Source of the DNA: Geobacter metallireducens GS-15
GTDB taxonomy: Bacteria > Desulfobacterota > Desulfuromonadia > Geobacterales > Geobacteraceae
Direction of reading: 5' to 3'
Length of the DNA stretch: 32,000 nucleotides
Assembly: GCF_000012925.1 (NCBI RefSeq)
Contig: NC_007517.1
Span: forward strand, 330,001-362,000
Positions 8,655 through 31,672 of this stretch are shown piece by piece; position 1 is the first letter of the stretch; the number at the start of each line of letters is the position of its first letter. The notes under the pieces were generated by a model. It was not told where the DNA came from, did no database searches, and saw only the letters and a program-made list of their open reading frames with translations. The translations under genes and the position numbers were made by a program.

Positions 8655-8690
8655 GTTACCGTTTCTCCCCGCATGTTACCCATACGTAAT
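8655..8690. promoter_or_regulatory. Putative enhancer (UAS) for sigma54 promoter P1
   Basis: GTTACCCATACGTAAT at 8675-8690 matches 10/12 arm positions of GTTACC-N4-GGTAAC. An extra GTTACC half-site sits at 8655-8660. The palindrome centre is 104 bp upstream of the P1 GG. Confidence 0.4.
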
Positions 8691-8784
8691 ACCCTTTGAA
8701 TCAGGTCGTTCCCTCCTGAATATCCCTGCCTGAAAAAATCGCACAAAAATAGTCAGTTGCGGAATCCATGGTTTTTTACCCTTT

Positions 8785-8800
8785 TGGTAGGCTCCTTGCT
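8785..8800 (+). promoter_or_regulatory. Sigma54 (-24/-12) promoter P1
   Basis: TGGTAGGCTCCTTGCT has GG and GC spaced as in TGGCAC-N5-TTGC. The flank CTTTTGGTA is shared with P2 and P4. Confidence 0.65.
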
Positions 8801-8882
8801 AAACGGAAGGGTGAGGCCATGTTCCGCGGCCTCTGAGCGCCGTTCGAACAGGGACGTATCGAACCATTACAGGAGGTAATGC

Positions 8883-9074
8883 ATGTGCGGGAGCAAACAT
8901 CACGACAAACATCTCTGCAGCCTGAAGAGTAGCGGCGAGCCCCACAGGCCCGGCACGGCCAGGGTGGAGTGCGGTCACTGCGGGGCACGGACCGATGACC
9001 CGGGAAAGGTCTGTGAGCCGATAACGCGACCAGCCATAGGATGGTTCAGTAATGGTTCCGACTATCTCGACTAG
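8883..9074 (+). CDS. Small Cys/His-rich protein (63 aa), function unknown
   Basis: AGGAGG lies 7 nt before the ATG. Sequence includes MCGSKHHDKHLC ... VECGHCGARTDDPGKVCEP. The ORF is bracketed by sigma54 promoter P1 upstream and a hairpin terminator 20 nt downstream. Confidence 0.6.
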   Translation: MCGSKHHDKHLCSLKSSGEPHRPGTARVECGHCGARTDDPGKVCEPITRPAIGWFSNGSDYLD

Positions 9075-9093
9075 GAGACACTAACACAACAAG

Positions 9094-9125
9094 GCCACTT
9101 CGCTGACGGGAAGTGGCTTTTCCTT
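9094..9125 (+). terminator. Rho-independent terminator after the small ORF
   Basis: GCCACTTC (9094-9101) pairs with GAAGTGGC (9110-9117) around an 8-nt loop, followed by TTTTCCTTTTCC. Confidence 0.7.
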
Positions 9126-9163
9126 TTCCTGCGAGACCGAACAGAACGTTGAGGAACAGGGCC

Positions 9164-9604
9164 ATGAATGTGACTGCCATTGACGAAGCGATCGACAAAT
9201 ATGTCCATGAACGGATGATGAACAAGGGCAAGCAACCAGCCGCGACACGATTCCTCTCCTACGCGTACCTGAAGTACGGGGGAGACGATCTGGCTGAATT
9301 CATGAAAAAGGTGGAGGGGTTGCTATGCTACTACATCGACTATCTCAAGGTCATGGGGAACCCGTTGAAAGGGCCGGAGTTGGCGTGGTTTCTGTCCATG
9401 CTTACGGTAGGCGCGGCCAGTTGCTACCTGATGAATTCGGAAGAATTACGGCCTGCCGGAATAGCGGTTTTTGTCGGCACGCTGGTTCATGCCGGCTCAC
9501 TCCTCTGCCATGCTGCCCGCAAATGGTGTGAGGCAGGGGTCATGATCGCCATTTACCGGGAGATCCTGGAGATTGCCGAAGGTGAGGCCAAGGGGGCAGT
9601 GTAA
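9164..9604 (+). CDS. Hypothetical protein with two hydrophobic segments
   Basis: ORF 9113..9604 trimmed to the ATG at 9164 (GAGGAA RBS), because the upstream part overlaps the terminator. No recognisable domain. GC is visibly lower than in neighbouring genes. Confidence 0.55.
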   Translation: MNVTAIDEAIDKYVHERMMNKGKQPAATRFLSYAYLKYGGDDLAEFMKKVEGLLCYYIDYLKVMGNPLKGPELAWFLSMLTVGAASCYLMNSEELRPAGIAVFVGTLVHAGSLLCHAARKWCEAGVMIAIYREILEIAEGEAKGAV

Positions 9605-9631
9605 CCCTTTCTCCCTTCCCTTCGGTCCCTG

Positions 9632-12427
9632 TTATCCCGTGTTCCTTAGCCCCGCGGCAATGCCGTTGATGGTGGCCGCCAGGACGTAGTTCAGCTCGTC
9701 GCTCTCTTCCCCGGCCCGCTTGCGCCGCAGGAGCTCGATCTGGATCATGCTCAGGGGGTCGATGTAGGGGTTCCGCAGCCGCAGCGACGCGGTCAGGGCC
9801 GGGTTCTTTTCCAGAAGCCGCGCCTGGCCCGTGACCGCCAGGACCATCCGCCGGGTCCGTTGGTATTCCTCCACGATCATGGCGAAGACCCGCTCGCGAA
9901 TTCCCGCGTCGGTCACCAGGGACGCGTAGAGTCGGGCCAGGGGGAGATCCACCTTGGTGAGGGCCAGTTCCACGTTCCTGATCAGATCGAAAAAGAAGGG
10001 GAAGCGCCCCATCATGGACCTGAGGAACTCCAACCGACCTTCTCCCCCGACGGCGAAGCGATCCAGGGCGAAGCCGACCCCGAACCAGCCCGGTATCACG
10101 TGGCGGCTCTGTATCCAGCCGAAGCCCCAGGGTATGGCCCGCAGCTCCGCTATATCCCGGCTCCGGCTCCGGCGCGCGGGGCGGGAGCCGATCTTTGCCA
10201 GCTCGAATTCCAGGACCGGCGTGGCCTGCTCGAAGTAGGGGAGGATGTCGGGGTTGCCGGTGATCCGCTCACGGTAGAAGGTGAAGGCGCTCCCCGACAT
10301 CTCCTCCAGGGCTTCCTCCCATGCCGGCTCGGGCCGTGTCTCCACGAGGCCGGCGCGGGCCAGGGTCTCCAGGGAGGCGGCCACCATCAGCTCCAGGTTC
10401 CGTTTCGCCAGGGACGGGTCGGAGTATTTCCAGTTGATGACCTCTCCCTGCTCGGTGATCTTGAGGGCGCCGGAGAAGCCGTCGGCCGGCTGGGCGATGA
10501 TGGCCCGGTGGGTGGGGCCGCCCCCCCTCCCCACGGTGCCGCCGCGGCCGTGAAAGAGGCGCAGACGCACTCCGCACTCCTGGGCCACCCGCTGGAGATC
10601 CCGGTGGGCCTTGTGGATCTCCCAGGTGCTCGTGAACATCCCCCCGTCCTTGTTGGAATCCGAATAGCCGAGCATCACCTCTTGCCGGCGTCCCCACGAA
10701 TCGAGAAACGGCCCGTATTCGGGCGAGCACCAGAGGGCGCGGCAGATCCCCGGCGCGTTGCGCAGGTCTTCGATGGACTCGAAGAGGGGGACCGGCATCA
10801 CCCCCGGGTCCTTTCCGTCCGGCGAGGCGGCCACGCGGATGCCGCAGAGCTCCATGAGCCAGATGAGGGAGAGGGTGTCCCGGGCCGAGGAGGCGCCGCT
10901 GATGACGTAGCTCCTGATTGCCTTGGGGGAGTAGCGCTGCTTCAGCTTTGCCACGGCCCGGAGGGTGTCGAGGAGTTCGGTGGTCTCGGCGGACGGGGGG
11001 GGAGGGACGGGGTGAACCCCCTCCTCGCAGCTGCCGGCGCCGGCGGCCAGCTCTGCCACGGCCCGGGCATGGATCCGGGCATGCTGCCGGATATCGAGGG
11101 CGTGGAGGTGGAAGCCGAAGGTCTCCACCTGCCGCAGGAGCGGGTCCACGTAGCGGCGTGCCAGCCGCTCCCCTTCCCCCTGGGCGAGGCTTGTGCGCAC
11201 CAGCATGAGGTCGGCGGCGAAGGCTCCGGCATCGGGATAGGCGTCGGGGTGGTCTTCCCCGTCGCGGGTCTGCATGAGGCGGTGGTGGACACACCGGAGG
11301 AATTTCCGGTATGGCTCGCACTCGGGGTAGATGCCGGTTTCCGCGGCTGCTCCGGCCAGGGCGGCGACATAGCGCTCCAGGGCCTCCCGGAGCTGCGGCG
11401 AGACCGTCACCCGATTGGTTGACGGCGTCAGGAGCTCCTTCAGTTCCTCGACCCCGTCCAGGTACCGGGCGAGGATCATCTGGCGGGCTGATTCCAGGGC
11501 GTGTCGGGTGGTGCCGACTGTCACGTTGGGGTTGCCGTCCCGATCCCCGCCGATCCAGGAGCCGAAGCGGATCACGGTGGGGAAGGCAGCATCGGGGAGG
11601 TCCGCGCCGTAGACCTGGCGGAAATCCTCGGCCATTTCTTCATAGAGGCCCGCCAGGGGCGCCATGAGGGAGCCGGGATAGTGGTCGAGCCCCATCCTGA
11701 TCTCGTCGGTCACCCCCTGGGGACGGCGGCGCACCTCGTCCGTCTGCCAGAGGGCGGTGATCTCCGCGAAGATGGCCTCCTGTCGCCGGTCAGCCTCGTC
11801 GCCGGCCAGGGGGAGGAGGTCAAGCTCCGCCAGCTCCCGGGCGATCCGGCGTCGCTTGAAGAGGACCACACGCCGCGCCACTTCCGTCGGATGAGCGGTG
11901 AAGACCGGCATGATCTCCACCTGCCGCAGCAGATCGAGGGCTTTTTCGGCCGTTATTCCCCCATCCCGCATCCGCATCAGGGTGCCCAGCAGGGAACCGG
12001 GCTTCACGGGGGCAGCGGGTGAAAGTTGCGTGGCCCGGCGCCGGCGCATCCGGTGGTTGGTCTCCGCCAGGTTGGTGAGCTCGAAGAAGGTCCCGAAGGC
12101 CTTGACGATCTGGTAGGTCTCGGCCACGGTCATCGTTCCCACGATCCTGACGGCCCGTTCCTGGAGTTCCTGCTCGGCGGGGCTGTCGAGGACCGCTTCC
12201 TCCTGGTCGGCGAGTGCCCGATGGCTGATGGCCAGCCGACGGAGCTCTTCCTCGGCATCGTAGGCAGCCGGCCCCGCCTGCTCCTTGATCACCTCACCCA
12301 GCAACCGACCCAGGGAGCGGACATCGCGCCGCAGCGGGATATCCTTCAGGGCCGGGTCCAGGGTCATCAGCTCGTTCAGCCGCACGGCCTGGTCGTCCGC
12401 CTTCCAGAACAGCTCTCGTTCCGCCAT
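9632..12427 (-). CDS. ppc: Phosphoenolpyruvate carboxylase
   Basis: 931 aa. Typical motifs VFTAHPTE, GYSDSNKDGG, FHGRGGTVGRGGGP and the C-terminal INGIAAGLRNTG. GGAGGA RBS. Confidence 0.95.
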   Translation of the reverse strand: MAERELFWKADDQAVRLNELMTLDPALKDIPLRRDVRSLGRLLGEVIKEQAGPAAYDAEEELRRLAISHRALADQEEAVLDSPAEQELQERAVRIVGTMTVAETYQIVKAFGTFFELTNLAETNHRMRRRRATQLSPAAPVKPGSLLGTLMRMRDGGITAEKALDLLRQVEIMPVFTAHPTEVARRVVLFKRRRIARELAELDLLPLAGDEADRRQEAIFAEITALWQTDEVRRRPQGVTDEIRMGLDHYPGSLMAPLAGLYEEMAEDFRQVYGADLPDAAFPTVIRFGSWIGGDRDGNPNVTVGTTRHALESARQMILARYLDGVEELKELLTPSTNRVTVSPQLREALERYVAALAGAAAETGIYPECEPYRKFLRCVHHRLMQTRDGEDHPDAYPDAGAFAADLMLVRTSLAQGEGERLARRYVDPLLRQVETFGFHLHALDIRQHARIHARAVAELAAGAGSCEEGVHPVPPPPSAETTELLDTLRAVAKLKQRYSPKAIRSYVISGASSARDTLSLIWLMELCGIRVAASPDGKDPGVMPVPLFESIEDLRNAPGICRALWCSPEYGPFLDSWGRRQEVMLGYSDSNKDGGMFTSTWEIHKAHRDLQRVAQECGVRLRLFHGRGGTVGRGGGPTHRAIIAQPADGFSGALKITEQGEVINWKYSDPSLAKRNLELMVAASLETLARAGLVETRPEPAWEEALEEMSGSAFTFYRERITGNPDILPYFEQATPVLEFELAKIGSRPARRSRSRDIAELRAIPWGFGWIQSRHVIPGWFGVGFALDRFAVGGEGRLEFLRSMMGRFPFFFDLIRNVELALTKVDLPLARLYASLVTDAGIRERVFAMIVEEYQRTRRMVLAVTGQARLLEKNPALTASLRLRNPYIDPLSMIQIELLRRKRAGEESDELNYVLAATINGIAAGLRNTG

Positions 12428-12613
12428 GATTTCATCCTCCGGTGATGGTTGTGTCCCTGTTGTTGCTGCTGTGATTCAAATGCCGTGCCGCTGGGTTGGC
12501 ATTCCCACGTGAAGGGGTGGCGCTTGCTCTGCCAGTAGGGGCGCGGCAAGCACCGCCCCTACAAATGTACCCCATTTCGAACCATATGAAAGAACGCGGA
12601 TCATCCGAATCCG

Positions 12614-12651
12614 CGTAACCCTTCTCACCCGCCACGTTACGCTATGGAAAC
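12614..12651. promoter_or_regulatory. Putative enhancer (UAS) for sigma54 promoter P2
   Basis: GTTACGCTATGGAAAC at 12636-12651 matches 10/12 arm positions. A CGTAAC half-site sits at 12614-12619. The centre is 106 bp upstream of the P2 GG. An AT-rich tract at 12694-12730 lies between UAS and promoter. Confidence 0.45.
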
Positions 12652-12747
12652 ATCTGCTTGTGCCCGCCGGCACCTCCTGCCAGTGAGTGCCCTTAAAAAA
12701 CTCCGCAAAATCAGATAGTTAATTTTTTTTATGGTGACCATCACTTT

Positions 12748-12763
12748 TGGTATGCCGATTGCC
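12748..12763 (+). promoter_or_regulatory. Sigma54 (-24/-12) promoter P2
   Basis: TGGTATGCCGATTGCC has correct GG/GC spacing. The flanks CTTTTGGTA and TTGCCATT are shared with the other three promoters. Confidence 0.7.
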
Positions 12764-12922
12764 ATTATATCGGCAACCTGCTCTTCCTGGTGTATGGTCA
12801 GCCGCCTGATCTCTGTGTCAGGGCCGTGGCAGACTGTCAAAATCCGGAAGATTAGTTGGCTGCAGCCGATGCAGCACTATCAAAAGCTGAGCGACGTTAA
12901 CAAAGGGCATGAGGAGGTCTCT

Positions 12923-14194
12923 ATGCAGTTGACAGGATTAAAGTATGGAAGAAGGCTGCTCGATCTGGTGGAGTTTCCCGTGTCGCAGGTTCTGACAGAG
13001 GATGCTTCCCACGATGAGATCAATGAGCTGATTGCATCCCATGGCGGCAAGTGTATTGTCAAACCGGTGTTCCTCGGTGGCGTGGGGAAAAAGGGTAAGG
13101 CTGGTCTAGTGCGCATTTGTTCCAATGTCTTTGACGCGATGGTCGCCAAGCGTGACCTCTTCTTTGCCACCCATCACCAGGGGAACCGCGAGGTGCAGGC
13201 CTGTGGCGTGACCTTTGAAGGATACATCGCCTCGGACATCGAGATCTACGTGAGCATCTCCGAGTCCAGTGAATACCGGATGCCGGTCCTCCTCCTGACC
13301 ACCAAGGGTGGGGTCGACGTGGAAGATGTCCCCCCCGAGGACAAGCGGACCATCGTCTTCAACCCGGTCACCGGCGTGAAGTCGTTCCATATCAACGATG
13401 CCCTGCGGGAGCTGAAGTGCCCCCCCCAGTACATCAGTTCCCTCGTTCAGCATCTGCCGAAGCTCTGGCAGGTCTATGACAACTACGGCCTCACCACCCT
13501 GGAGCTGAACCCCATCCGGATGGGGAAGGTGAAGGGGCGCTACGTCCCCTTCGCCTGCGACATCAAGGCCTCCTTCGACCAGGACAACCCGGCCTGGAAA
13601 CGGCTCGGCTACCCGGAGGAGATCTTCTCCACCACCATCACCCAGTTCGAGTCGGAGATCAATGTCCTGCGGACCCACCAGGGGCAGAGCGACGTGACGG
13701 AGGTGAACCCCAAGGGGACGATCCTCCCCTTCATCTTCGGGGGCGGGGCCAACAGCGCTGCCACGGAGATCCTGGCGGACCGGGCCATCATCTCCTCCGA
13801 CTTCGGCGGCAACCCCCCCTACGAGAAGATCAGGGCCATTGCCGACATCACCTTCAAGCACTGGCTTCCCCAGGCGAACGTGGTGCTCCTGATCGGGGGA
13901 CGGGCCAACAACACCAACATCTTCACCACCTTCAAGGCGATCTTCGATTCGCTTCGGGAGCACATCCGCCTGAACCCCGACGTCTTCGTGGTGGCGGGGC
14001 GGGGCGGTCCCATGGTGGTGGAGGGGATGGTCTACGGCAGGGACGTCCTCGACTCCCTTCGTGTCCCCTACCGCTTCTTCGGCCATGACAGCAGCATGAT
14101 GAGCGTTCTGCAGCATGCCATCGAGATCGATTCGTTTCTTGAGCCGAAACCGGTCGCGGTGGCGCCGAAGCAGATCAAGGCCAAGGCGGCGTGA
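12923..14194 (+). CDS. aclB: ATP-citrate lyase beta / citryl-CoA synthetase ATP-grasp subunit-like protein
   Basis: ORF 12731..14194 trimmed to the ATG at 12923 (GAGGAGG RBS). 423 aa. SucC/AclB-like ATP-grasp N-terminus (KPVFLGGVGKKGKAGLVRI). Directly precedes the alpha-like subunit. Confidence 0.82.
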   Translation: MQLTGLKYGRRLLDLVEFPVSQVLTEDASHDEINELIASHGGKCIVKPVFLGGVGKKGKAGLVRICSNVFDAMVAKRDLFFATHHQGNREVQACGVTFEGYIASDIEIYVSISESSEYRMPVLLLTTKGGVDVEDVPPEDKRTIVFNPVTGVKSFHINDALRELKCPPQYISSLVQHLPKLWQVYDNYGLTTLELNPIRMGKVKGRYVPFACDIKASFDQDNPAWKRLGYPEEIFSTTITQFESEINVLRTHQGQSDVTEVNPKGTILPFIFGGGANSAATEILADRAIISSDFGGNPPYEKIRAIADITFKHWLPQANVVLLIGGRANNTNIFTTFKAIFDSLREHIRLNPDVFVVAGRGGPMVVEGMVYGRDVLDSLRVPYRFFGHDSSMMSVLQHAIEIDSFLEPKPVAVAPKQIKAKAA

Positions 14195-14236
14195 GCAGCG
14201 TCGCGAGACGGAACGACTTCACGAAGGAGATAACCA

Positions 14237-16966
14237 ATGAACTATCAAAATAATCCCTTTCCCTACCACGTCGGTGTCCAGTCGCTCCACGAGCTGGCCA
14301 ACAAGCATTCCCGGGTCTGCATCATGAACATCCGGGGGACCGAGAGCTCACTCGTCACCCCCGTCTCCCACGCTTACAGCGGCGGGAACGTGGTTGCCGG
14401 GGTCCAGTACGGTGAGTCGGGCGGAACCTTCGAGACCCCCGTGGGGGACATCCCGGTCTTCGGCAGCATCTCCGACGTCATCAGGGCTGGCATCCACTTC
14501 GACACCGGCGTGGTCTATCTCCCCCCCAGCGCCGTTTCCCACGCGGTGTCGGAGATGTGCGCCCGTAACGTCAACCTGAAGCGGATCGTCATCGTGACCG
14601 AGAAGGTCTCGGCCCGGGATTCGCGCCTGATCCGCTACGGCTGCCAGAACGCCAAGGTGGACGTGATCGGGGCCAACACCCTGGGGATTGCCAACTCCTG
14701 GGATCAGGTGCGGATCGGCGGCGCCCTGGGGGGGGACGTTCCGGCCCAGAGCCTGCGGAAGGGGAGTGTCGCCATCTACAGTAACTCCGGCAACTTCAGC
14801 ACCACCATCTCCGAGTACCTGAAGACCGCCGGGTTCGGAACCTCCACCATCCTCAGCAGCGGCAAGGACGTCTACATCCATTTCGCCCTGGCGGAATTCC
14901 TCTACTGCGCCGAGAACGACCCCCGCACCAAGGCCATCGTGGTCTACGTGGAACCGGGGGGGTACTACGAGAAGCAGGCCCTTGACTGGATCAGCGAGGG
15001 GCGCTTCAAGCTGACCAAGCCGATCATCGCCTGCGTGACCGGGCGGTGGAAGAAGAACCTGACCCGCTCCTGCGGCCACGCCGGAGCCATGGCGGGAAGC
15101 GGCGACGACGCCGAGGCGAAGGAGATCTGGTTCGATGACTTCTTCGGGGTGCCGGTCTTTGATCCGGAGCGGCCAGAGGTCTCCAAACGGGGGATCCGGA
15201 TCAGGACCATCCAGGATGTGCCCGAGGCGGTCACCGCCTGCATGGAGCTCATGGGCGAAAATCCCGACTTTCCCTCCACGGGGGATCTGAGCCTCAAGCC
15301 GTGGTTCGTAAACGATCAGGATCTGACCATGCCCCAGCAACTCCGGATGCATCCGGTGCGGGCCATCTCCCCCTACGGGGAGGAGATCGAGAAGTTCAAC
15401 AAGCTGGTGGGGGCCCGCATCATGCGGGAGCCCATGCGCAACCGCTCCGGCGCCAGCGCCATCGACCCGGCCGACTTCACCATCTCGCTCCACGGCCGCA
15501 AGCTCCTGGATCTCATCGAGGAGCCCTTCGGCGCCGTGACGGCCTACTCGGTCCTGAAGACCATGCCCGACGCCGGTCAGATGGCCGTCATCAACCCGCT
15601 CCTCAACTGGTTCGCGGCCCGGGGAAGCGAGAATATCGCCACTGTGGCTAGGGGGAGGGCCAACGGCTGCACCCCCAACGCCGCCATCGGCGCCGAGGTG
15701 CTCCTTGCGGGGAACAATCCCCTCTTTGAGTCGCTGCGGGCCACGAGCTCCTGGCTCATCGACCGGTTCTTCCACGAGACCGGGGGAGATCTCTCCATCA
15801 ACGAGGAGCTCATCGAGAAAGCATGCAGCGACGGCGAGGGATTCCCCGCCGCCGTGGAGGACCCCCGTTCGGAACAGCTGGCGGAGTATTTCGGAGCACT
15901 GCTCCGGACCCATGGCCAGGAGACAATCCTCACCCGTTTCGCCCAGGTGTATAGCGAGAAACGTCGCGCCGAGGGAGAACCCGTTGATTCCTTCACGCTT
16001 CTCGCCTCCGCCATCCTCCTGGGGCTCGCCTGGAAACCCCTGGCGGAGCGCCGCATCGCCCGGGAGGTTGCCCAGGATCTCGGGACGTACCTGGGGCTGA
16101 ACGGGATCATCGTTGGCGTCTCTCCCGTGAACCCGGAGCGGAATCCCTTCTGGCAGAAACTCCACGCGCTCATGGATCCGACGATCCTCTCTACCGATTT
16201 TGCGTCCACCTGCTTCCAGGTGCTTTTCAACCGGGTTCCGCAGGAGCAGGAGCTCTTCACCTACAACGCGCTCCTCAACCTCACCGTCACCAACGGCCCG
16301 GGAACCCTCAGCGCCAAGGGAGCCAAGGAAAGCATCAGCGCCCGCAACCACATCGCCACGGCCTATGCCGGCTTCCTGGCCAACACCGGCCTGGCCCACG
16401 GGGGGAATGGCTTCGAATCGGTGAGCTATCTCCTGGACATCTTCTCGGAGACCGACCCGTACCAGGGAACCCCGGTGGAGTTGGACCCGGTCCTCAAGGG
16501 GCTGGCAGCCCGGGCAACCCAGGAATTCGTGGTCCGGAAGAAGAAGGCGAAGATCGAAGGGGCGACGGAGCGGATTCCGTGCATCAACCATCCGGTGTTC
16601 CGCGACAAGGCCGAAAACCACGACCCGCGAGAGGTCTTCATCCGCAATCTTCTCAAGGGGAAGGAGATCCAGAATCCCTTCCTGGAGTTCTACCACCACC
16701 TGGTCACGGAGCTCCACGCCGAGGGGATAACGAGCAACGTCTACTGCGTCAACGTCGATGCGGTCATCGCGTGCATCGCCCTGGATCTCCTCTGGAAGCA
16801 GCTCCGGGACGGCGAAATCAGCGAGCAGGATGCCCAGGAGATCGTCTTCATCATGTTCCTCTACGGCCGGATGGCGGGGGTGTCGGCCGAAATCGCCGAC
16901 CACCTGGGCAGGGGACAGGATCTCGACTGCCGCACCAATCCCGGCGAGCTGGTGTATCTGGCGTAG
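14237..16966 (+). CDS. aclA: ATP-citrate lyase alpha-like large subunit: SucD-like CoA-ligase domain plus long insert plus citrate-synthase-like domain
   Basis: 909 aa. Phosphohistidine loop SCGHAGAMAGSG. C-terminal citrate-synthase-like motifs GLAHGGNG and INHPVFRDKAENHDPRE. AAGGAG RBS. Confidence 0.82.
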   Translation: MNYQNNPFPYHVGVQSLHELANKHSRVCIMNIRGTESSLVTPVSHAYSGGNVVAGVQYGESGGTFETPVGDIPVFGSISDVIRAGIHFDTGVVYLPPSAVSHAVSEMCARNVNLKRIVIVTEKVSARDSRLIRYGCQNAKVDVIGANTLGIANSWDQVRIGGALGGDVPAQSLRKGSVAIYSNSGNFSTTISEYLKTAGFGTSTILSSGKDVYIHFALAEFLYCAENDPRTKAIVVYVEPGGYYEKQALDWISEGRFKLTKPIIACVTGRWKKNLTRSCGHAGAMAGSGDDAEAKEIWFDDFFGVPVFDPERPEVSKRGIRIRTIQDVPEAVTACMELMGENPDFPSTGDLSLKPWFVNDQDLTMPQQLRMHPVRAISPYGEEIEKFNKLVGARIMREPMRNRSGASAIDPADFTISLHGRKLLDLIEEPFGAVTAYSVLKTMPDAGQMAVINPLLNWFAARGSENIATVARGRANGCTPNAAIGAEVLLAGNNPLFESLRATSSWLIDRFFHETGGDLSINEELIEKACSDGEGFPAAVEDPRSEQLAEYFGALLRTHGQETILTRFAQVYSEKRRAEGEPVDSFTLLASAILLGLAWKPLAERRIAREVAQDLGTYLGLNGIIVGVSPVNPERNPFWQKLHALMDPTILSTDFASTCFQVLFNRVPQEQELFTYNALLNLTVTNGPGTLSAKGAKESISARNHIATAYAGFLANTGLAHGGNGFESVSYLLDIFSETDPYQGTPVELDPVLKGLAARATQEFVVRKKKAKIEGATERIPCINHPVFRDKAENHDPREVFIRNLLKGKEIQNPFLEFYHHLVTELHAEGITSNVYCVNVDAVIACIALDLLWKQLRDGEISEQDAQEIVFIMFLYGRMAGVSAEIADHLGRGQDLDCRTNPGELVYLA

Positions 16967-23754: not shown

Positions 23755-24085
23755 AGCCCGTGCGCTCGAACGCCCGGATGTGAAAGCCGAATATGACCGG
23801 CTTGACGAGGAATTTGCTTTTCTGGACGAATTTCTGAAAGCGCGTGCAGCCGCTGGAGTTACACAGGCGGAAGTTGCCGAACGCATCGGCACGACACAGT
23901 CTGCTATTGCACGGCTTGAGTCAGGAGGAGGAAAACATTCTCCCTCTCTGGCCACGCTGCAGAAGTACGCACACGCCCTCGGCTGCCGTCTGGAGTTGCG
24001 GCTCGTCCAAGAGACTAAAGCTCGGGAAATTGAAGGAAGGGCCAGCCGCCCAAGTCGGGCCGCCACGAAGCGGGTGGCTGGGTAG
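23732..24085 (+). CDS. XRE-family HTH antitoxin (HigA-like)
   Basis: 117 aa. HTH motif VTQAEVAERIGTTQSAIARLESG. Overlaps the 3' end of the toxin remnant. Confidence 0.85.
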   Translation: MLTHKKLKARALERPDVKAEYDRLDEEFAFLDEFLKARAAAGVTQAEVAERIGTTQSAIARLESGGGKHSPSLATLQKYAHALGCRLELRLVQETKAREIEGRASRPSRAATKRVAG

Positions 24086-24239
24086 CTTCGCAACTGTCAG
24101 TGAGAAGGATGGTGTGTTGGCGGCAGAGGTCGTCTCAATGGGGCGTTGTCTATTTGTCAATGACACGGAGTTGGCAAACTATTAAACAACGTTCCTAGTC
24201 TCCCTTAAAGAAAGTTTGATGCTCTCTGCAAATTGGGAG

Positions 24240-24270
24240 TTGATTTTATACGTCAATGCCGTATATTGAC
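24240..24270 (+). promoter_or_regulatory. Sigma70-like promoter with overlapping operator-type inverted repeat for the second TA pair
   Basis: TTGATT (24240-24245), a 16-nt spacer, then TATATT (24262-24267). The inverted repeat GTCAAT (24252-24257) / ATTGAC (24265-24270) overlaps it. Confidence 0.4.
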
Positions 24271-24273
24271 TAC

Positions 24274-24594
24274 ATGGTCACGTTCGTCGAATCACCGTTA
24301 TTTACCAAACAGGTTCATGATTATCTGACTGACGACGAATATCGGATTTTTCAGGCGTTCCTTGCTGCCACACTTGATGCAGGCGATGTGGTGCGCGGTT
24401 CCGGGGGAGTCCGCAAGGTTCGCTGGAACCGTCGCGGCACCGGCAAAAGCGGCGGGGTCAGGGTTCTATATTTTGCCCGTTCAGAAGCAGGCGAAATCTG
24501 GTTGCTACTGATTTACGCCAAGAGCGCTGTTGACAGCATTCCCGGCCATATTCTCAAAGCACTCAAAGAGGAGATGGAACATGTCACTCGATGA
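24274..24594 (+). CDS. RelE/HigB-2-like toxin
   Basis: MVTFVESPLFTKQV...GSGGVRKVRW..RGTGKSGGVRVLYFAR..GEIWLLLIYAKS. The ATG at 24274 is preferred over 24256 because family N-termini begin M-x-F-x-E-x-x-x-F. Confidence 0.8.
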   Translation: MVTFVESPLFTKQVHDYLTDDEYRIFQAFLAATLDAGDVVRGSGGVRKVRWNRRGTGKSGGVRVLYFARSEAGEIWLLLIYAKSAVDSIPGHILKALKEEMEHVTR

Positions 24595-24892
24595 AAAAGA
24601 ACTGCTGGCACGCGATGCAAAGAGAAACATTGGCGAAGAACTCCTCCAGGCCGTGCGAGACATCAAGGCCGGCAAGGTCGGGCGTGTTTCCACCCTGGAA
24701 ATTTCTCCAATAGCTGCGGCTCGCCAAAAGATCGGTCTTTCGCAGAGGGAGTTCGCAAAAATGCTCGGGGTATCGCTCCGCACCCTTCAGGAGTGGGAGC
24801 AGGGGCGTCGGACGCCATCCGGTGCGGCGAAATCTCTCATCACTATTGCCATCAAGAAACCTGAGGTAATCAAAGAACTACTTGCAGCCTGA
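24581..24892 (+). CDS. HTH antitoxin (HigA-2/NadS-like)
   Basis: ORF 24530..24892 trimmed to the ATG at 24581 (GAGGAG RBS). Overlaps the toxin stop by 14 nt. HTH motif LSQREFAKMLGVSLRTLQEWEQGRRTPSGAA. Confidence 0.85.
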   Translation: MSLDEKELLARDAKRNIGEELLQAVRDIKAGKVGRVSTLEISPIAAARQKIGLSQREFAKMLGVSLRTLQEWEQGRRTPSGAAKSLITIAIKKPEVIKELLAA

Positions 24893-25630
24893 GTCCACAA
24901 AGAAAATAGGGGACGGGCTAGTTTTTCCACATGCCTTCATCCCCTCAGCGATTCTTTCCTCGAAAAGTAGCCTGTCCCTTTTTTTCTTTCCCGTGGCCCC
25001 CTTAAATCCAGTGCTTTGTGTACTTTGAATAGTTGTATTCGTCGATTCTCTTGAGAAGTGGACGATCGTCGCAGTGCGGAACAAATTTTCGAACTCTTTC
25101 CGAGAGTATTTTATCTTTTCACAGAATTTCAGGTATTTGATGTGAGAATCACCGTCAATGTAAAAACAATTATACTTCCACGCAATGTTGGAATCCCATA
25201 TTGGAAGAAATGCCGGTGCAAACAAACTCAGCGTCTTTGCTACTGAGACAGGGCTTTTTCGATTGTCATTTAAACGTTTTAACGATGATAAAAAATCATT
25301 AAACAGAGTTGTGAGTAACTCCGAATCAAGTGTGGTGAGGGTCTCTATTCCTCTGTCTCTGAGATTGCTAAGCGAATCAATATTTCGATCAATGGACGCA
25401 ATTACAGCATTTTTATCATAGCGAGCGTAAAATCTGTTCCATCCTCGTATTATTCGACTGACTCCACGCTCCATTTCAGAAGCGTTGCCCCAGTTCTTAT
25501 TGATGACCTCCAACGCATCGAACCATATAGGCCCTCTTCTCTCTCTTTGATTGTAAATCTCATACCCTGAACAGAACTCGTGCCTCTCGGGTATATGAAA
25601 ATCTATCTGATCGTTCAAGGAGTTAGACAT
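24878..25630 (-). CDS. Hypothetical protein (250 aa), low GC, no domain recognised
   Basis: The only long ORF in an AT-rich stretch. It starts 13 nt after the reconstructed stop of the upstream lipoprotein gene. The C-terminal ~60 aa look low-complexity and may not be native. Confidence 0.6.
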   Translation of the reverse strand: MSNSLNDQIDFHIPERHEFCSGYEIYNQRERRGPIWFDALEVINKNWGNASEMERGVSRIIRGWNRFYARYDKNAVIASIDRNIDSLSNLRDRGIETLTTLDSELLTTLFNDFLSSLKRLNDNRKSPVSVAKTLSLFAPAFLPIWDSNIAWKYNCFYIDGDSHIKYLKFCEKIKYSRKEFENLFRTATIVHFSRESTNTTIQSTQSTGFKGATGKKKRDRLLFEERIAEGMKACGKTSPSPIFFVDSGCK

Positions 25631-25643
25631 GGCTTATTTCCCT

Positions 25644-25725: not shown

Positions 25726-25833
25726 GTCGCCCCTGAAAAAGTATAACATACTGATGTTATTGATATAATTTGCGTTTATTGTGTGGTAAAATCGCCAGCA
25801 ATTGAATCAACACACTCAAAACCTGGTGATTTC

Positions 25834-26510
25834 ATGAAACCAAAAACAAGCGCCACCGGCCAAGAAGATCTGTTTCGTTCCCGACTCGATCAGATCCTCA
25901 ACCGCCGGCATCCCCTGTTCCGCCTGGCCAACACCATCGACTGGACGGTCTTTGACAAGGAGTTTGGTTCCCACTACGTCGCCAAAATCGGTCGACCGGG
26001 ACTGCCGATCCGTTTGCTGGTCGGGCTGCACTACCTCAAGCATGCCTACAATGTGAGCGATGAGACGGTGGTAGCCCAGTTCATCGAAAATGGTTACTGG
26101 CAGTATTTCTGCGGCTTCGAACACTTCCAGCACCAGTTCCCGCTCGATCCGACCACCCTGGTCAAGTGGCGCAAGCGCATCGGACCCAAGGGGATGGAGA
26201 AGTTGCTCCAGGTGACCATCGAGACGGCCAAGGGCAAGGAGTACGTGACCGAAAAAGACCTGGAGCGAGTCAACGTCGACACCACGGTCCAGGAAAAGGC
26301 CATCGCCTTTCCGACCGACGCCCGGCTCTACCACAAGGCCCGGCGTATTCTGGTGCGGCTCGCCAAAAGAGGCGGCATCGAGCTTCGCCAGAGTTACGAG
26401 CGGCTTGGCAAGCGAGCCTTCATCATGCAGGGTCGTTACAGTCACGCCCGGCAGACGAAGCGGGCCAGGCGGGAACAAAAGCGGCTGCGCCTGTACCTTG
26501 GCCGGGTGAT
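25834..26510 (+). pseudogene. IS5-family transposase, N-terminal fragment (DUF772-like)
   Basis: MKPKTSATGQEDLFRSRLDQILN..HPL..LA..IDW..FD...GRPGLPIRLLVGLHYLKH. Homology ends at ...LYLGRVI, exactly at the IS21 end. Confidence 0.85.
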
Positions 26511-26582
26511 TGTCAACGGCAATCGAAAATTGACCCACTTTACCGGTTGATCGGCAATTGAAAAATGACCCACCTTCCTGGG

Positions 26583-28417
<1,835 letters not shown>

Positions 28418-28487
28418 CTAGGTTATCAGGAAGAGTGGGTCAATTTTCAATTTCCGAGGTGGGTCATTTTTACATTGCCGCTAACAG

Positions 28488-29162
28488 GTGATTCGTGACA
28501 TCCAACGCAAATGCGAGGCACCGGCCCCTCTGCTGGCCACCATGCTGGAGCGGGCGAAGCGGATCTTTGGCCAGAAGCGAAACGATAAGAACAAACTCTA
28601 CAGCATGCAGGCCCCGGAAGTGGAATGCATCGCCAAGGGCAAGGCCCACAAGAAATACGAATTCGGCTGCAAGGTATCGCTGGTGAGCACCTCAGAGAAC
28701 AGCTGGATCGTCGGCGTCCAAGCCGTCCATGGCAACCCGTATGACGGGCATACACTGCAAGACGCGCTCGATCAGGCACAGGCCATCAGTGGCTGGCGCC
28801 CCCAGCATGCTTATTGCGACAAAGGCTACAAAGGCGCCCCGGCAACCCTTAACAGCACCGAGATTCATCTGGCCAACAAGAAAAAGAAGAGTATCAAGGC
28901 CAGCGCCTGGAAATGGTACCGGCGGCGCAGCGGCATCGAGCCGATTATCGGCCACGTCAAGCAAGACCACCGGATGGACCGCAACTACCTGAAGGGCGAA
29001 GAAGGCGACAAAATCAACGCCATCCTGGCCGGGTGCGGCTTCAACATCAGGAAGCTCCTCAGAGCTATCCTTTTGTGGCTTTTCAAAGAGCGATTCAGGG
29101 GCATCGATCTGAACCTGATGCCCTTGCTGGAGTGCTTACCCTGCCGGTTTCAGACCAACTGA
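28488..29162 (+). pseudogene. IS5-family transposase, C-terminal fragment (DDE domain)
   Basis: (V)IRDIQRK...AYCDKGYKG...RSGIEPIIGHVKQDHRMDRNYLKGEEGDKINAILAGCGFNIRKLL. In frame with the N-terminal fragment once IS21 and one GGTGAT copy are removed (449 codons in total). Confidence 0.85.
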
Positions 29163-29190
29163 GACCGTTTGGGGACTTTTTCAGGGACGA

Positions 29191-29904
29191 CTATTTAACT
29201 TCCGGGCTGTACCAGAGTTCGCTGATTCTCGCGCCATAGTCGCTTCTGTTCAAAATATAAAAAGCATCAAATTCACCAGCAGGCACTTTGATCCGTCCAT
29301 ATCCTTTAACCTCATGGTGGTTTGAAAGATCAATGTGACCACCTGAGCGGTGCATATCGCCAGTGGCATTCCAACTTTTGCTCAAGAAGAGCGGGAAGTC
29401 GAAAGGGCGTAGGGCTGGATCGTATTCAGTTTCAACACCACCACTACCAAAGACAATCATGAGACCAAGAGACTGGTCATAAAAAGATTCTCTGCCATTA
29501 GCATTAAAAACATTGTAACCTGCGGTTCCATTATAACTCCCGATTTTCTGCACGGTAAGTCGGCTAGTTCCGCCACTGCTTAATGAATACTCCCAAAATT
29601 GCCCAGCCTGCCATTCTGGTCGCGCTGCCTTCTTGTCGGTTGCATCAATGAGTGTATCAAATCTAGGAGTGTCCTTAGCTTCTAATTCCTCTAGTGGGAT
29701 AAGCCCCAATACTTTTTGATTATTTACGCAGTTGTTATAGTTCTTGTAAGCTAAAGGTGCTCCCAACCAGCCCCACCCACTTGATGCACATACAGTTTGT
29801 TGCCACGTGTTGGGATTTACCATTACCTGGCGTGGGTTTGCACATCCGCACAGAATTGTCAAAAGCACACATGCAAGCAAACAACAAAAACTAAGATTCT
29901 TCAT
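29191..29904 (-). CDS. Lipoprotein of unknown function, 3'-truncated by the IS5-family insertion
   Basis: ORF 29191..29997 trimmed to the ATG at 29904 (GGAGG RBS). Lipobox MKNLSFCCLLACVLLTILCGC. The third base of the TAG stop (29191) is the terminal base of the IS, so the present stop was created by the insertion. Low GC. Confidence 0.7.
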   Translation of the reverse strand: MKNLSFCCLLACVLLTILCGCANPRQVMVNPNTWQQTVCASSGWGWLGAPLAYKNYNNCVNNQKVLGLIPLEELEAKDTPRFDTLIDATDKKAARPEWQAGQFWEYSLSSGGTSRLTVQKIGSYNGTAGYNVFNANGRESFYDQSLGLMIVFGSGGVETEYDPALRPFDFPLFLSKSWNATGDMHRSGGHIDLSNHHEVKGYGRIKVPAGEFDAFYILNRSDYGARISELWYSPEVK

Positions 29905-29917
29905 TTGGACCTCCGTT

Positions 29918-31257
29918 AAATTTTGGTTCTTCAGGGAATTCCGGGGAAGATTAATAAACAACAACGGCAGCACTGCGGTATCTTGATGGTTCCCCAACCA
30001 AAAAAGATCGCAGGAGGCTGCCGTTGTCGTATTCCGATGTTATCGCAATTGCGGGAGGGTGGGAAGGATATCGTGTTGCTGGGGCACGCACTATCGTCAC
30101 AAGTGATGCCAAACGGATCGAGGTAGAACTGATTGCCCTGTCCCAGGATGAGATGGTGTGTGGCTCGTGCGGTGGGCGTTGCACAAGCGTCCATGAAACG
30201 ACCAAGCGCGTAATTCGAGATTTGCCGATTCTCGATGCTCAGACTTATCTGATCGTTCACCGCCGCAGGCTGCTGTGCCCTCAGTGTGGGCCAACGCTGG
30301 AGCGTCTGTCATGGCTGGCGAAATACGCCCGCGTGACGCGCAGGCTTGCAGAGAGCGTAGCGCGACTGTGTGGTGTCGTGTCTGTGAAGCACGTGGCGCA
30401 GTATCTGGGGCTTTCTTGGGACCAGGTGAAGGAAATCGACAAGCGCTCACTCACAGAGCGGGTCGGCACCGTCGACCTCTCAAACATCGAAGTTCTCGGG
30501 ATGGATGAGTTCGCCCTTCACAAGGGGCACCGCTATGCGACGGTTATCATCGAGCCATACCGTAAGGAAGTCTTATGGATCGGCAAAGGCAGGAGTCGCG
30601 AGAGTATCCGTCCTTTCTTCACGCAGCTTGGCCCACATGGCTGTAAACGGCTCAAAGCGGTCGTGATGGATATGAACGCATCATATGAGGAGGAAATCAA
30701 GCAGCACTCGCCCCAGGCAGACATAGTCTACGACCTGTTCCATGTGGTGGCGAAGTATGGCAGGGAAGTGATCGACAGGGTGCGAGTCGATGAGGCAAAC
30801 CGCCTGAAGGAAGACAAGAAGGCACGGAAGGTAGTCAAAACATCGCGGTGGTTGCTGCTACGAAACAGCGAGAACGTCAAGGGCGACGACATGCTTCGCC
30901 TCCAGGAACTGTTGGAGGCAAACCGCAGCCTCCTTACGGTCTACCTGCTCAAAGACGATCTGAAGCAACTGTGGAAGTTTACCTGCATTGAAGAGGCGGG
31001 ACTATTCTGGGAGCAGTGGCACCAAAGGGCGATGGAGAGTGGAATACCGCCACTCATCCTGTTTGCCCGCCGGCTAAAGGGCTATCTCCAAGGAATCCTC
31101 AATCACTGCCTCTGGCCCCTTCACACCGGAATCCTCGAAGGCATCAATAACAAGATCAAGGTGATCAAAAGAATGGCCTACGGCTTCCGGGATCACGAAT
31201 ACTTCTTTCTCAAGATCAGGGCCGCTTTCCCCGGAATTCCCGGATGAACCTAAATTT
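29918..31257 (+). mobile_element. ISL3-family insertion sequence (about 1.34 kb)
   Basis: Imperfect inverted repeats of about 31 bp: AAATTTTGGTTCTTCAGGGAATTCCGGGGAA (29918-29948) against the reverse complement of 31227-31257. The core GGGAATTCCGGGGAA is identical. No target duplication was found. Confidence 0.72.
30024..31247 (+). CDS. ISL3-family transposase
   Basis: 407 aa. Zinc-finger-like N-terminus (CGSCGGRC...CPQCG). LGMDEFALHKGHRYATVI. C-terminal NNKIKVIKRMAYGFRDHEYFFLKI. TTG start with AGGAGG 6 nt upstream. Confidence 0.9.
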   Translation: MSYSDVIAIAGGWEGYRVAGARTIVTSDAKRIEVELIALSQDEMVCGSCGGRCTSVHETTKRVIRDLPILDAQTYLIVHRRRLLCPQCGPTLERLSWLAKYARVTRRLAESVARLCGVVSVKHVAQYLGLSWDQVKEIDKRSLTERVGTVDLSNIEVLGMDEFALHKGHRYATVIIEPYRKEVLWIGKGRSRESIRPFFTQLGPHGCKRLKAVVMDMNASYEEEIKQHSPQADIVYDLFHVVAKYGREVIDRVRVDEANRLKEDKKARKVVKTSRWLLLRNSENVKGDDMLRLQELLEANRSLLTVYLLKDDLKQLWKFTCIEEAGLFWEQWHQRAMESGIPPLILFARRLKGYLQGILNHCLWPLHTGILEGINNKIKVIKRMAYGFRDHEYFFLKIRAAFPGIPG

Positions 31258-31522
31258 TTTGCTCAACTACCCATTTTGGATATTTTCGGAGTTGCTCAGC
31301 GACAGAGCGATTAACAGCTATTTCAGCATCCCCCCCCCCGCAGCTATGCAATTCCTGTCTGCGCCTGTTGTATCCAGCAGGCGGCCGGATGTCAAACATT
31401 AAGAGTTTGCCATTCAGGCAAGCGTTCCTGCGCCACCATAAACTCTGTGTCGGCACCCGGCAGCTCCCGCTGGCCGTCCCCCTTCTTCCCCCGCGGCCGG
31501 TGTTCCTTCCGGAACCGGGGCA

Positions 31523-31559
31523 CGTAACGTTTCCCACCCATCCGTTACCGCAAGGTAAC
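31523..31559. promoter_or_regulatory. Putative enhancer (UAS) for sigma54 promoter P4
   Basis: GTTACCGCAAGGTAAC at 31544-31559 has perfect 6-bp arms. A CGTAAC half-site sits at 31523-31528. The centre is 107 bp upstream of the P4 GG. An AT-rich tract at 31598-31645 lies between. Confidence 0.55.
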
Positions 31560-31656
31560 GTCATCCCTGTCCCCCGCTCATCCCTCCCGCAGCGTCTTTC
31601 TTTGATTAGTTTATTACTATCACATGGTTATGTTTTTTTATTTCGGCCGGAACTTT

Positions 31657-31672
31657 TGGTACGTCACTTGCC
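31657..31672 (+). promoter_or_regulatory. Sigma54 (-24/-12) promoter P4
   Basis: TGGTACGTCACTTGCC has correct GG/GC spacing, with the shared flanks CTTTTGGTA and TTGCCATT. Confidence 0.7.

Follow-up and report, generated by a model that had tools for sequence, protein, structure and literature searches.

Four sigma-54-type promoters of Geobacter metallireducens share an enhancer module and a predicted activator, Gmet_0339

Introduction

What binds an enhancer-like palindrome that precedes four promoters of Geobacter metallireducens GS-15, and do the genes behind these promoters form one regulon? The promoters (P1 to P4) lie in a stretch of 32,000 nucleotides (NC_007517.1, positions 330,001 to 362,000 of the forward strand; "the window" below, with positions counted from its first letter). 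Each resembles a sigma-54 promoter, and each has the palindrome about 105 bp upstream. A first-pass annotation of the window had proposed a single regulon but could not assign its activator. We propose that P1 to P4 are one sigma-54 regulon and that its activator is the Gmet_0339 orthologue, which is predicted to act at a common module of palindrome, half-site, integration host factor (IHF) site, and promoter. From sequence comparisons, we put the probability of this reading at about 0.72.

Four promoters with a common architecture

The promoters, palindromes, half-sites, and IHF cores are all on the plus strand. The four promoters and four palindromes are where the first-pass annotation had placed them. 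The promoters are P1 (TGGTAGGCTCCTTGC, 8785–8799), P2 (TGGTATGCCGATTGC, 12748–12762), P3 (TGGTACACCACTTGC, 21356–21370), and P4 (TGGTACGTCACTTGC, 31657–31671). Each fits TGGTA-N6-TTGC, with the GG and GC dinucleotides of a −24/−12 element correctly spaced, and the orthologous promoters that are described below fit TGG[CT]A-N6-[TC]TGC. From such elements, transcription would be expected to begin about 11–13 nt past the GC, near 8811 (P1), 12774 (P2), 21382 (P3), and 31683 (P4). The palindrome is perfect at P3 (GTTACCGTACGGTAAC, 21245–21260), has perfect arms at P4 (GTTACCGCAAGGTAAC, 31544–31559), and has two arm mismatches at P1 (GTTACCCATACGTAAT, 8675–8690) and at P2 (GTTACGCTATGGAAAC, 12636–12651). 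From the start of the palindrome to the promoter element is 110 bp (P1), 112 bp (P2), 111 bp (P3), or 113 bp (P4). From the palindrome's centre to the GG, we measured 103.5, 105.5, 104.5, and 106.5 bp (P1 to P4), close to the 104, 106, 105, and 107 bp given previously.

A half-site lies farther upstream, within 1 nt of its previously reported position (8655, 12614, 21223, and 31523). At P1 it is GTTAC at 8655, within a region (GTAATGTTAC, 8651–8659) that is 20 bp 5' of the palindrome and is less regular than those of P2 to P4. The others are GTAAC at 12615–12619 (P2), GGTAAC at 21223–21228 (P3, with GTAAC at 21224), and GTAAC at 31524–31528 (P4). So, the promoters have the arrangement of an upstream activating sequence: a palindrome about 80–150 bp upstream and a second site in helical phase with it (at P3, the half-site is 32 bp from the palindrome's right arm). 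The promoters also share the flanks that were noted previously (TTTTGGTA, and TTGCCATT in P2 to P4) and a T-run. As an extra block in common, the half-site and the palindrome have a pyrimidine box (TTCYCNCCC; CTTCTCACCC in P2) between them.

The first-pass annotation considered the tract between palindrome and promoter to be IHF-like only loosely, but we found an IHF core (WATCAR-N4-TTR) at a fixed position, 39 nt before the TGG. It is exact in P2 (AATCAGATAGTTA, 12709–12721), has one mismatch in P3 (TATCAAGCCGATG, 21317–21329) and in P4 (TATCACATGGTTA, 31618–31630), and is absent from P1. It is also exact in three orthologues of P3 (loci L007, L043, and L047 in our numbering).

As each motif is short and the window is GC-rich, the motifs might have come together by chance. 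However, only 0.07 matches to TGGTA-N6-TTGC are expected in the window, as judged from dinucleotide-preserving shuffles, and we found four, all on the plus strand; 0 of 100 shuffles reached four. Similarly, 0.33 matches to a loose palindrome, GTTAC-N6-GNAA, are expected and five were found (the palindromes of P1 to P4 and a lone site at 23858). The first-pass annotation had predicted that the palindrome would be found about 105 bp upstream of −24/−12 elements, and within the window this holds in both directions. Every palindrome in the window with at most two arm mismatches has a promoter element 110–113 bp from its start (four of four, within a 4-bp offset window), and with both strands scanned, there are no orphan TGG[CT]A-N6-T[TG]GC elements in the window. 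As a rough estimate, the chance of four such placements is about 4e-15.

In a toxin-antitoxin region, the lone match to the loose palindrome (GTTACACAGGCGGAA, 23858–23872) is inside an open reading frame for an XRE-type HTH protein (23732–24085). It is not followed by a promoter element and has probably arisen by chance.

A crude scan for the sigma-70 consensus from 8000 to 23000, a range that does not reach P4, gave 3 sites (2.5 in shuffles), none of which is upstream of the P1, P2, or P3 units. A scan of the window with Rfam found no family, and hence the 5' untranslated regions contain no riboswitch or leader RNA of a known type.

Some of these promoters also have inverted repeats. At P3, an inverted repeat at 21364–21384 (CTTGCCAT-TAGTC-ATGGCAAG) overlaps the −12 element and the expected start of transcription. 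In the P3 orthologue of Geobacter hydrogenophilus (L007), the arms are unchanged and the loop is longer (TAGGGAGTC), and P2 has a shorter repeat at 12757–12777 (TTGCC-ATTATATC-GGCAA). Another factor might use these repeats over the −12 element as its operator, or they might be a feature of the transcript's 5' end. Another inverted repeat, with a 9-bp stem (ACGCGGATCATCCGAATCCGCGT, 12594–12616), precedes and overlaps the half-site of P2 in the divergent region between the genes for phosphoenolpyruvate carboxylase (PEPC) and aclB. It scored as terminator-like on the minus strand, though no gene ends there.

Conservation of the module across genomes

The first-pass annotation had suggested scanning relatives with a combined model. 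We scanned 596 Gb of species-representative genomes with a strict composite of this kind (GTTACC-N4-GGTAAC, N88-102, TGGYA-N6-TTGC) and found 48 loci, as compared to about 8 expected. Most of the 48 loci are in conserved groups. Because of this conservation and the shuffle statistics, we consider the chance explanation to be refuted, and its remaining probability is negligible.

Five of the 48 loci are from Geobacter and have the full extended architecture. Among these are the P3 and P4 orthologues from G. hydrogenophilus, whose palindromes (L007 for P3 and L029 for P4) are identical to those in the window, and two other Geobacter species (L043 and L047) have perfect variants of the P3 palindrome. 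The module is also kept at the P1 and P2 loci of a GEOBC-type species. There, the palindrome orthologous to that of P1 is perfect (GTTACCAACAGGTAAC, in L023 and L141) and lies 16 bp past an activator gene. The P2 orthologue, which we found in L141 via homologues of aclB, has a better palindrome than P2 itself, with one mismatch (GTTACCATACGGGAAC) and a promoter (TGGTACGGGGATTGC) at +112. L142 has a similar variant of the P2 palindrome (GTTACG..CGAAAC).

The distance from the start of the palindrome to the TGG is 110–113 bp in Geobacter, NC10/Rokubacteria, Alcaligenaceae, Planctomycetes, and Nitrospirae, and 107–110 bp in Acidobacteria. Ungrouped singletons scatter over 104–118 bp and are probably chance hits for the most part. 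Outside of Geobacter, the palindrome and a sigma-54 promoter are also found 5' of genes for molybdopterin oxidoreductases (NC10/Rokubacteria), cytochrome c (Nitrospirae), a sulfite/nitrite-reductase-like protein (Acidobacteria), and pseudopilin-like proteins (Planctomycetes).

These comparisons also bear on whether a promoter-bearing cassette, duplicated or mobile, gave rise to P1 to P4 as copies, in which case their similarity would reflect descent rather than function. The spacers of P3 and P4 are modestly alike (64% identity, z = 3.5), a related species has a single promoter in place of the P3 and P4 of this clade, and there are insertion sequence (IS) elements between P3 and P4. In contrast, the remaining pairs of spacers are near random (z = 0.1 to 2.9), with conservation only in the motif blocks. 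Over all pairs, z ranges from 0.1 to 3.5, and therefore the four regions are not recent copies of a repeat. Furthermore, orthologous sites persist across species while the spacers diverge, and the same blocks with the same spacing occur in unrelated phyla with unrelated flanks. We consider the cassette to be a very unlikely explanation.

A candidate activator, Gmet_0339

The first-pass annotation found no sigma-54 activator gene in the window, and we agree, but a candidate can be named. Among the 48 composite loci, 20 have a sigma-54 activator gene within 8 kb. In L023 (Geobacteraceae) and L141, a gene encoding a PAS-AAA+-HTH_8 protein ends 16 bp before the perfect palindrome. The promoter after this palindrome drives a homologue of the window's 146-aa gene, beside PEPC, and is syntenic with P1. 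The L023 activator is 83% identical to P0008, the Gmet_0339 orthologue. P0008 is encoded on the 142.7-kb contig of the window region, about 17 kb past the end of the window and at the end of the nar operon (following narGHJI, genes for two NarK-type transporters, ppcF, moeA, moaA, and a protoglobin-domain gene, Gmet_0338). The activator gene and P1 to P4 share one island of about 45 kb.

In three complete genomes, orthologues with 54–63% identity are bracketed by palindromes, one before the start codon and a second 17–20 bp past the stop codon. The second palindrome is followed in each case by a sigma-54 promoter. In Citrifermentans bemidjiense (L058), the first palindrome is GTTACCAAATGGTAAC (about 27 bp from the start codon) and the second is GTTACCTGCCGGTAAC, with the promoter (TGGCACGCTACCTGC) at +100 for nrfA. 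In Trichlorobacter lovleyi (L059), they are GTTACTTTTATGTAAC (about 30 bp from the start codon) and GTTACCGAATGGTAAC, with the promoter at +102 for napDAGHBF-nrfA. In Geobacter benzoatilyticus (L060), they are GTTACCAATCGGTAAC (about 28 bp from the start codon) and GTTACCCGGCGGTAAC, with the promoter (TGGTACGCAACCTGC) at +100 for nrfHA. The distance from palindrome to promoter is about 10 bp shorter in these three genomes, which retains the same helical face. The palindrome before the start codon would mediate autoregulation. A cluster in Trichloromonadaceae has the order activator, nrfA, Fer2, flavoprotein, and aclBA, with variant palindromes. Overall, genes for PAS-AAA+-HTH proteins adjoin the palindrome in L023/L141, L058, L059, L060, and L144. 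Together with the conservation of the module at orthologous Geobacter loci, this supports the earlier proposal of a single enhancer and activator, and the palindromes of P1 to P4 are probably bound by a PAS-AAA+-Fis-HTH activator of the Gmet_0339 type.

The activator could not be assigned to a named family. The L023 protein does not reach the cut-off of any of the NCBIfam equivalogs (NtrC, NifA, NorR, AtoC, ZraR, PrdR, RtcR, etc.), and its best match is to PrdR (389 bits, with a cut-off of 795). P0008 has an N-terminal PAS domain (PF13596 and PF08448; PAS_10 and PAS_4) and no Response_reg domain. In the PAS domain, His63 is invariant and a FENSYYP motif is conserved. An AlphaFold model of P0008 (pLDDT of 80) has the expected layout of PAS, AAA+, and HTH. 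When this model was compared to the PDB with Foldseek, the matches were mostly to the AAA+ core and were uninformative about the ligand of the PAS domain. A search of the literature found no mention of Gmet_0339 or of GSU0359.

A second PAS protein is encoded in the window. Gmet_0298 (4861–5310) is a stand-alone PAS protein of 149 aa with very high expression, 1485–4575 fragments per kilobase of transcript per million mapped reads (FPKM). A homologue with 57% identity adjoins the activator gene in T. lovleyi (L059, 7900–8334). Compared to the PAS domain within the activator, Gmet_0298 has just 22% identity or so, and it may be a signalling partner.

The recognition helix and the palindrome

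The first-pass annotation had also suggested correlating the motif with the presence of activators. The orthologues from Geobacterales all end with LGISRKTLW(E/K/Q)K(M/L)K. Among the complete activators that are beside the palindrome in our genome scan, 17 of 19 have the SRK.LW helix, and they represent about 8 lineages (Alcaligenaceae, NC10/Rokubacteria, Nitrospirae, Rhodocyclaceae, Tepidimonas, an alphaproteobacterium, a metagenome-assembled genome (MAG) from Rickettsiales, and Geobacter). As controls, we used paralogous activators (37–57% identity) from a scan of metagenomes with P0053 that was aimed at orthologues and returned none. Just 2 of 64 complete control activators have the helix, even though KTLWKKMK was among the search peptides, so the control set should be biased, if anything, towards the helix. 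In the 63 control loci that were classed as non-matching (417 kb), there is no palindrome with at most one mismatch and no GTTAC-N6-GTAAC core. The association of helix with palindrome is highly significant, whether it is computed over all activators (P = 1e-13, Fisher exact test) or by lineage (P = 1e-7).

A natural swap supports the link between helix and enhancer. In L143, the orthologous acl-sdh operon has a divergent GAF-type activator with another helix (LGIQPTTLTTRIK), and the enhancer is GCAACG-N6-CGTTGC. (The enhancer, GCAACGGTATTGCGTTGC, and the sigma-54-type promoter of acl-sdh, TGGCACAGCTCTTGC, are at 1967–2065.) Here the operon is conserved but its regulator has been exchanged. 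More broadly, the correspondence between helix class and palindrome suggests a simple sequence rule for pairing enhancers with sigma-54 activators across phyla.

Is Gmet_0339 the activator of P1 to P4?

Even if the enhancers and promoters are real, they might be served by a different activator of the same DNA-binding class that is encoded elsewhere. Several distinct activators do use this class of helix and palindrome, including the AioR-type response regulators and the L142 activator, and Geobacter sp. SVR has two homologues. Also, in the G. metallireducens clade, the activator gene is not flanked by palindromes, and Gmet_0339 mRNA is high while the four units are low (see below). On the other hand, Gmet_0339 orthologues adjoin the palindrome in five other genomes, and in one of them that palindrome drives the orthologue of P1. 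Gmet_0339 is itself within the same island of about 45 kb as all four promoters, and among its best 120 homologues, one is labelled as G. metallireducens, though most have no species label. We view a different activator as unlikely.

Expression data are available from one RNA-seq data set, which compares G. metallireducens in nitrate medium to a co-culture with a denitrifier (PMC12607771 Data S1). In nitrate medium and in co-culture, respectively, expression was 26 and 71 FPKM for Gmet_0303 (P1), 16–27 and 24–49 FPKM for Gmet_0305 to Gmet_0310 (P2), 4.7 and 49.5 FPKM for Gmet_0311 (P3), and 5–12 and 19–36 FPKM for Gmet_0325 to Gmet_0327 (P4). The nar operon was at 135–543 FPKM in nitrate medium. 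The rise in co-culture was 3.3-fold for P1, 1.4- to 3.6-fold for P2, 12-fold for P3, and 2.4- to 4.4-fold for P4. PEPC (Gmet_0304), which is divergent from the P2 operon, went from 117 to 156 FPKM, which was not a significant change. The activator Gmet_0339 rose from 288 to 1042 FPKM. The joint rise of the four units is compatible with co-regulation, but it is weak evidence because most of the neighbouring genes rise too.

Several observations count against our proposal of a regulon under Gmet_0339. The palindromes of P1 and P2 deviate from the consensus at two arm positions each, the activator gene of this clade lacks the flanking palindromes that it has elsewhere, and some relatives have paralogues with the same helix (Geobacter sp. 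SVR and the L142 activator, as above). The rise in co-culture is not specific to the four units. Finally, the units are weak in nitrate medium (about 5–27 FPKM) despite the 288 FPKM of activator mRNA. Nitrate alone is therefore not the inducer, and P1 to P4 could be weak promoters.

HcpR-type sites and a possible upper tier of regulation

Rodionov et al. (PMC1274295) predicted that nrfHA and nar of Geobacter and Desulfuromonas are under the control of HcpR, a regulator of the CRP/FNR family. In the window, HcpR-type sites (TTGAC-N4-GTCAA) are found at 2041–2054 (CCCTTGACTTATGTCAAAGC), in the divergent region between nrfH-nrfA-1 and nrfA-2, and at 4796–4809 (AGCTTGACGCAGGTCAAGGA), upstream of the PAS protein Gmet_0298. 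In G. hydrogenophilus, another precedes narC (L029, reverse-complement coordinate 4471). In C. bemidjiense (L058, 9929) and G. benzoatilyticus (L060, 9927), HcpR-type sites are about 45 bp upstream of the palindrome that is proximal to the activator. The positions of these sites suggest that an FNR-family factor switches on the activator gene, whether by acting on it directly or by way of the nar operon. In this locus, the sigma-54 regulon appears to be one tier below the HcpR-type sites.

A factor of this kind, or a repressor, could instead be what binds the palindrome, in which case the TGGTA-N6-TTGC elements would not be promoters. The motif of HcpR2, which also belongs to the CRP/FNR family, is indeed built of the same half-sites (GTAAC-N4-GTTAC; PMC1274295). 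But the orientation and spacing of the half-sites are unlike those of HcpR2, HcpR-type sites occur separately in the same loci, and the palindrome is always about 100–113 bp from a GG-N10-GC element and beside sigma-54 activator genes. Also, the crude scan mentioned above found no sigma-70-type promoter near the P1, P2, or P3 units. So, it is highly improbable that the palindrome is the operator of a factor that does not act with sigma-54.

The genes behind the four promoters

The gene order of the window is that of Gmet_0294 to Gmet_0325 in G. metallireducens GS-15 (PMC2700814), including an IS21-family element, a lipoprotein gene, and an ISL3-family transposase before P4. The ATP-citrate-lyase-like alpha subunit is identical in an NCBI MAG (GCA_018531165.1, contig JAHDIW010000012.1; L001).

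P1 is followed by two small proteins, both encoded on the plus strand. The first (8883–9074) is Cys/His-rich, has 63 aa and no family match, is followed by a terminator-like hairpin (9091–9120), and is absent from L023. The second (9164–9604), which has 146 aa and no Pfam match, is probably Gmet_0303, and its homologue is the gene behind the P1-like promoter in L023/L141. We considered whether the small protein at P1 might be HgtR, a known RpoN-dependent repressor of Geobacter, but HgtR has 62 aa, starts with MGRMREN, and has a neighbouring activator with a hydrogenase-like domain (PMC2817479). In G. sulfurreducens, rpoN is essential (PMC2817479). The BccR / cbcBA regulon does not correspond either, as it has another activator (of the receiver-domain type) and other targets.

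P2 precedes an operon of six genes, Gmet_0305 to Gmet_0310 (12923–21103, plus strand), which encode the beta and alpha subunits of an ATP-citrate-lyase-like enzyme, a CBS protein, and SdhA, SdhB, and SdhE of a type-E succinate dehydrogenase/fumarate reductase (annotated in PMC2700814 and PMC12607771 Data S1). It is closed by a strong intrinsic terminator on the same strand (21162–21190; an 8-bp stem with 7 GC pairs, then TTTTTT). P3 precedes Gmet_0311 (21440–22219, plus strand), which encodes a 259-aa P-loop kinase of the AAA_33 or zeta-toxin-like type, and an AAA_33 gene is also 3' of the promoter in L007, L043, and L047.

The first-pass annotation described the P4 unit as a membrane protein, but it is Gmet_0325 to Gmet_0327, which encode the cytochrome c, iron-sulfur (FeS), and NrfD-type subunits of the Cbc4 menaquinol oxidoreductase. 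(In the window, only the start of the cytochrome c subunit gene is present, cbcS-2 or Gmet_0325, at 31827–32000 on the plus strand; the complete set is in L001 and L029.) The tight packing of genes suggested that P4 might also be the promoter of the nar operon. We rejected this because expression jumps about 60-fold from Gmet_0327 to Gmet_0328 (narC) and because the gap between these genes contains an HcpR-type site (TTGACTAAAGTCAA).

Previously, the controlled units were described as functionally disparate. They are less so than was stated, as all four units are within one nitrate/nitrite-respiration island. Furthermore, in the more distant Geobacter L043 and L047, a single promoter is followed by the AAA_33 gene and then directly by Cbc4, and therefore P3 and P4 are parts of a unit that is single elsewhere.

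Mobile elements and toxin-antitoxin-type genes lie between P3 and P4. Just 5' of P4, a patch at 25783–31247 contains an IS5-like transposase gene (25783–26550 and 28488–29162) that is interrupted by an IS21-family element (istB, 26583–27377, and istA, 27374–28399), a lipoprotein gene (29191–29997, minus strand), and an ISL3-family transposase (30024–31247). The patch matches ISGme4 and ISGme5 of G. metallireducens GS-15 and is missing from the near-identical MAG GCA_018531165.1 (L001). Between the P3 gene and the patch, at 22900–24900, are toxin-antitoxin-type pairs of Gp49/RelE-like and XRE-type HTH proteins (e.g., 24256–24594 with 24530–24892).

A proposed mechanism and its implications

We propose that an FNR/CRP-type (HcpR-like) promoter turns on the nar operon and thereby the activator gene. 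The activator's PAS domain would sense a signal, perhaps one that has to do with nitrogen oxides or with the redox state, and the activator would then oligomerise on the palindrome (centred near −129) and on the half-site three helical turns upstream. By bending the DNA near −64, IHF would loop the activator onto sigma-54 RNA polymerase, so that the four promoters open. The resulting regulon would comprise the two small proteins of P1, the laterally acquired acl-like/CBS/type-E Sdh operon of P2, the AAA_33 kinase of P3, and Cbc4 at P4. In other Geobacterales, the same activator would drive nrfA, nrfHA, or nap operons.

As a more tentative idea, and one with the odds somewhat against it as a whole, the palindrome, the ISRK(T/N)LWEKMK helix, and the 110–113 bp offset may be a portable module that has been reused in at least 6 lineages with interchangeable sensor domains (receiver or PAS) to switch on respiratory oxidoreductases (arsenite oxidase, Nrf, Nap, and other molybdoenzymes). 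On this view, the G. metallireducens clade would have recruited the module to laterally acquired acl-like and type-E Sdh genes and to Cbc4. With the activator in an HcpR-controlled nar operon, a two-tier cascade would then link nitrogen-oxide respiration to a change in the mode of the tricarboxylic acid (TCA) cycle.

The ATP-citrate-lyase-like enzyme underlies the proposed reductive TCA cycle of G. metallireducens (PMC3998878). Otherwise, the literature that we searched gave no account of the physiological roles or the regulation of the target genes. Our main proposal makes a concrete assignment of regulator to targets: Gmet_0339 to Gmet_0303, Gmet_0305 to Gmet_0311, and Gmet_0325 to Gmet_0327. 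It also predicts that the same family of activators controls nrfA and nap in other Geobacterales, which is relevant to nitrate ammonification in soils and sediments.

Comparison to known systems

The classical sigma-54 enhancer is that of NtrC at glnAp2, with IHF-assisted looping and the half-site TGCACC-N5-GGTGCA. The module described here is similar in having tandem sites about 100–140 bp upstream with helical phasing, an IHF site between enhancer and promoter, and an activator with a Fis-type HTH, but the half-site differs and NtrC has a receiver domain. CbrB of Pseudomonas, a response regulator with a receiver domain that acts with sigma-54 at the gene for the small RNA crcZ, has the reported site TGTTAC-N14-GTAACA. 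These half-sites contain GTTAC and GTAAC, but the spacer is N14 rather than N6. CbrB is only a lead. A literature search for GTTACC/GGTAAC as an enhancer returned only eukaryotic papers.

A functional analogue is NrfR (DVU0621) of the deltaproteobacterium Desulfovibrio vulgaris, a sigma-54 activator of nrfHA, which encodes the cytochrome c nitrite reductase (PMC4641369). In Geobacterales other than G. metallireducens, the PAS activator is directly upstream of nrfA or nrfHA. In contrast, DVU0621 is a two-component response regulator, and neither GTTAC nor GTAAC appears in the main text of that paper. As for HcpR2, its motif (GTAAC-N4-GTTAC; PMC1274295) has the same pentamers as GTTAC-N6-GTAAC, but with the arms in the opposite orientation and a shorter spacer. 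HcpR and HcpR2 belong to another protein family and act at sigma-70 promoters, and the palindromes of P1 to P4, which are about 105 bp from a −24/−12 element, are not placed as HcpR2 operators, for which a class-II distance from a sigma-70 promoter would be expected.

The first-pass annotation could not match the palindrome to a known activator, but it has the same geometry as the binding site of AioR, the sigma-54 activator of aioBA. AioR binds a 16-bp palindrome, as shown by electrophoretic mobility shift assays and DNase I footprinting (footprinted site GTTCGGATTTCCGAAC; published motif GT[TC][AC][CG]...[GTA]AAC; PMC5335332). Both this site and the palindromes of P1 to P4 are 16-bp GTT-N10-AAC palindromes 5' of a −24/−12 promoter. 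In Alcaligenaceae, the aioB-type promoters have exactly GTTACC-N4-GGTAAC, at 111–113 bp, and these matches drive a 176-aa Rieske protein with a twin-arginine (TAT) signal, which fits the small subunit of arsenite oxidase. The AioR-like activator of Alcaligenaceae is 41% identical to P0008 over AAA+ and HTH and has the same ISRK(N/T)LWEKMK helix.

The two systems differ in their sensors and their targets. AioR is a response regulator with a phosphorylated receiver domain and works with the AioS kinase and the periplasmic sensor AioX, while the Geobacter protein has a PAS domain and no receiver. Homologues of AioS or AioX are absent from the Pfam matches of the called genes in the window region and in L055. 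AioR controls aioBA (Rieske and molybdopterin subunits), whereas the Geobacter targets are acl/sdh, AAA_33, Cbc4, and small proteins, or nrfA/nap in relatives. Therefore, with the same site geometry and helix but a PAS sensor, the Geobacter locus is AioR-like at the level of DNA and is not a member of the Aio system. As a kind, this would be an ordinary sigma-54 regulon, to which our analysis adds a candidate activator, AioR as a relative of the enhancer, and a corrected set of targets.

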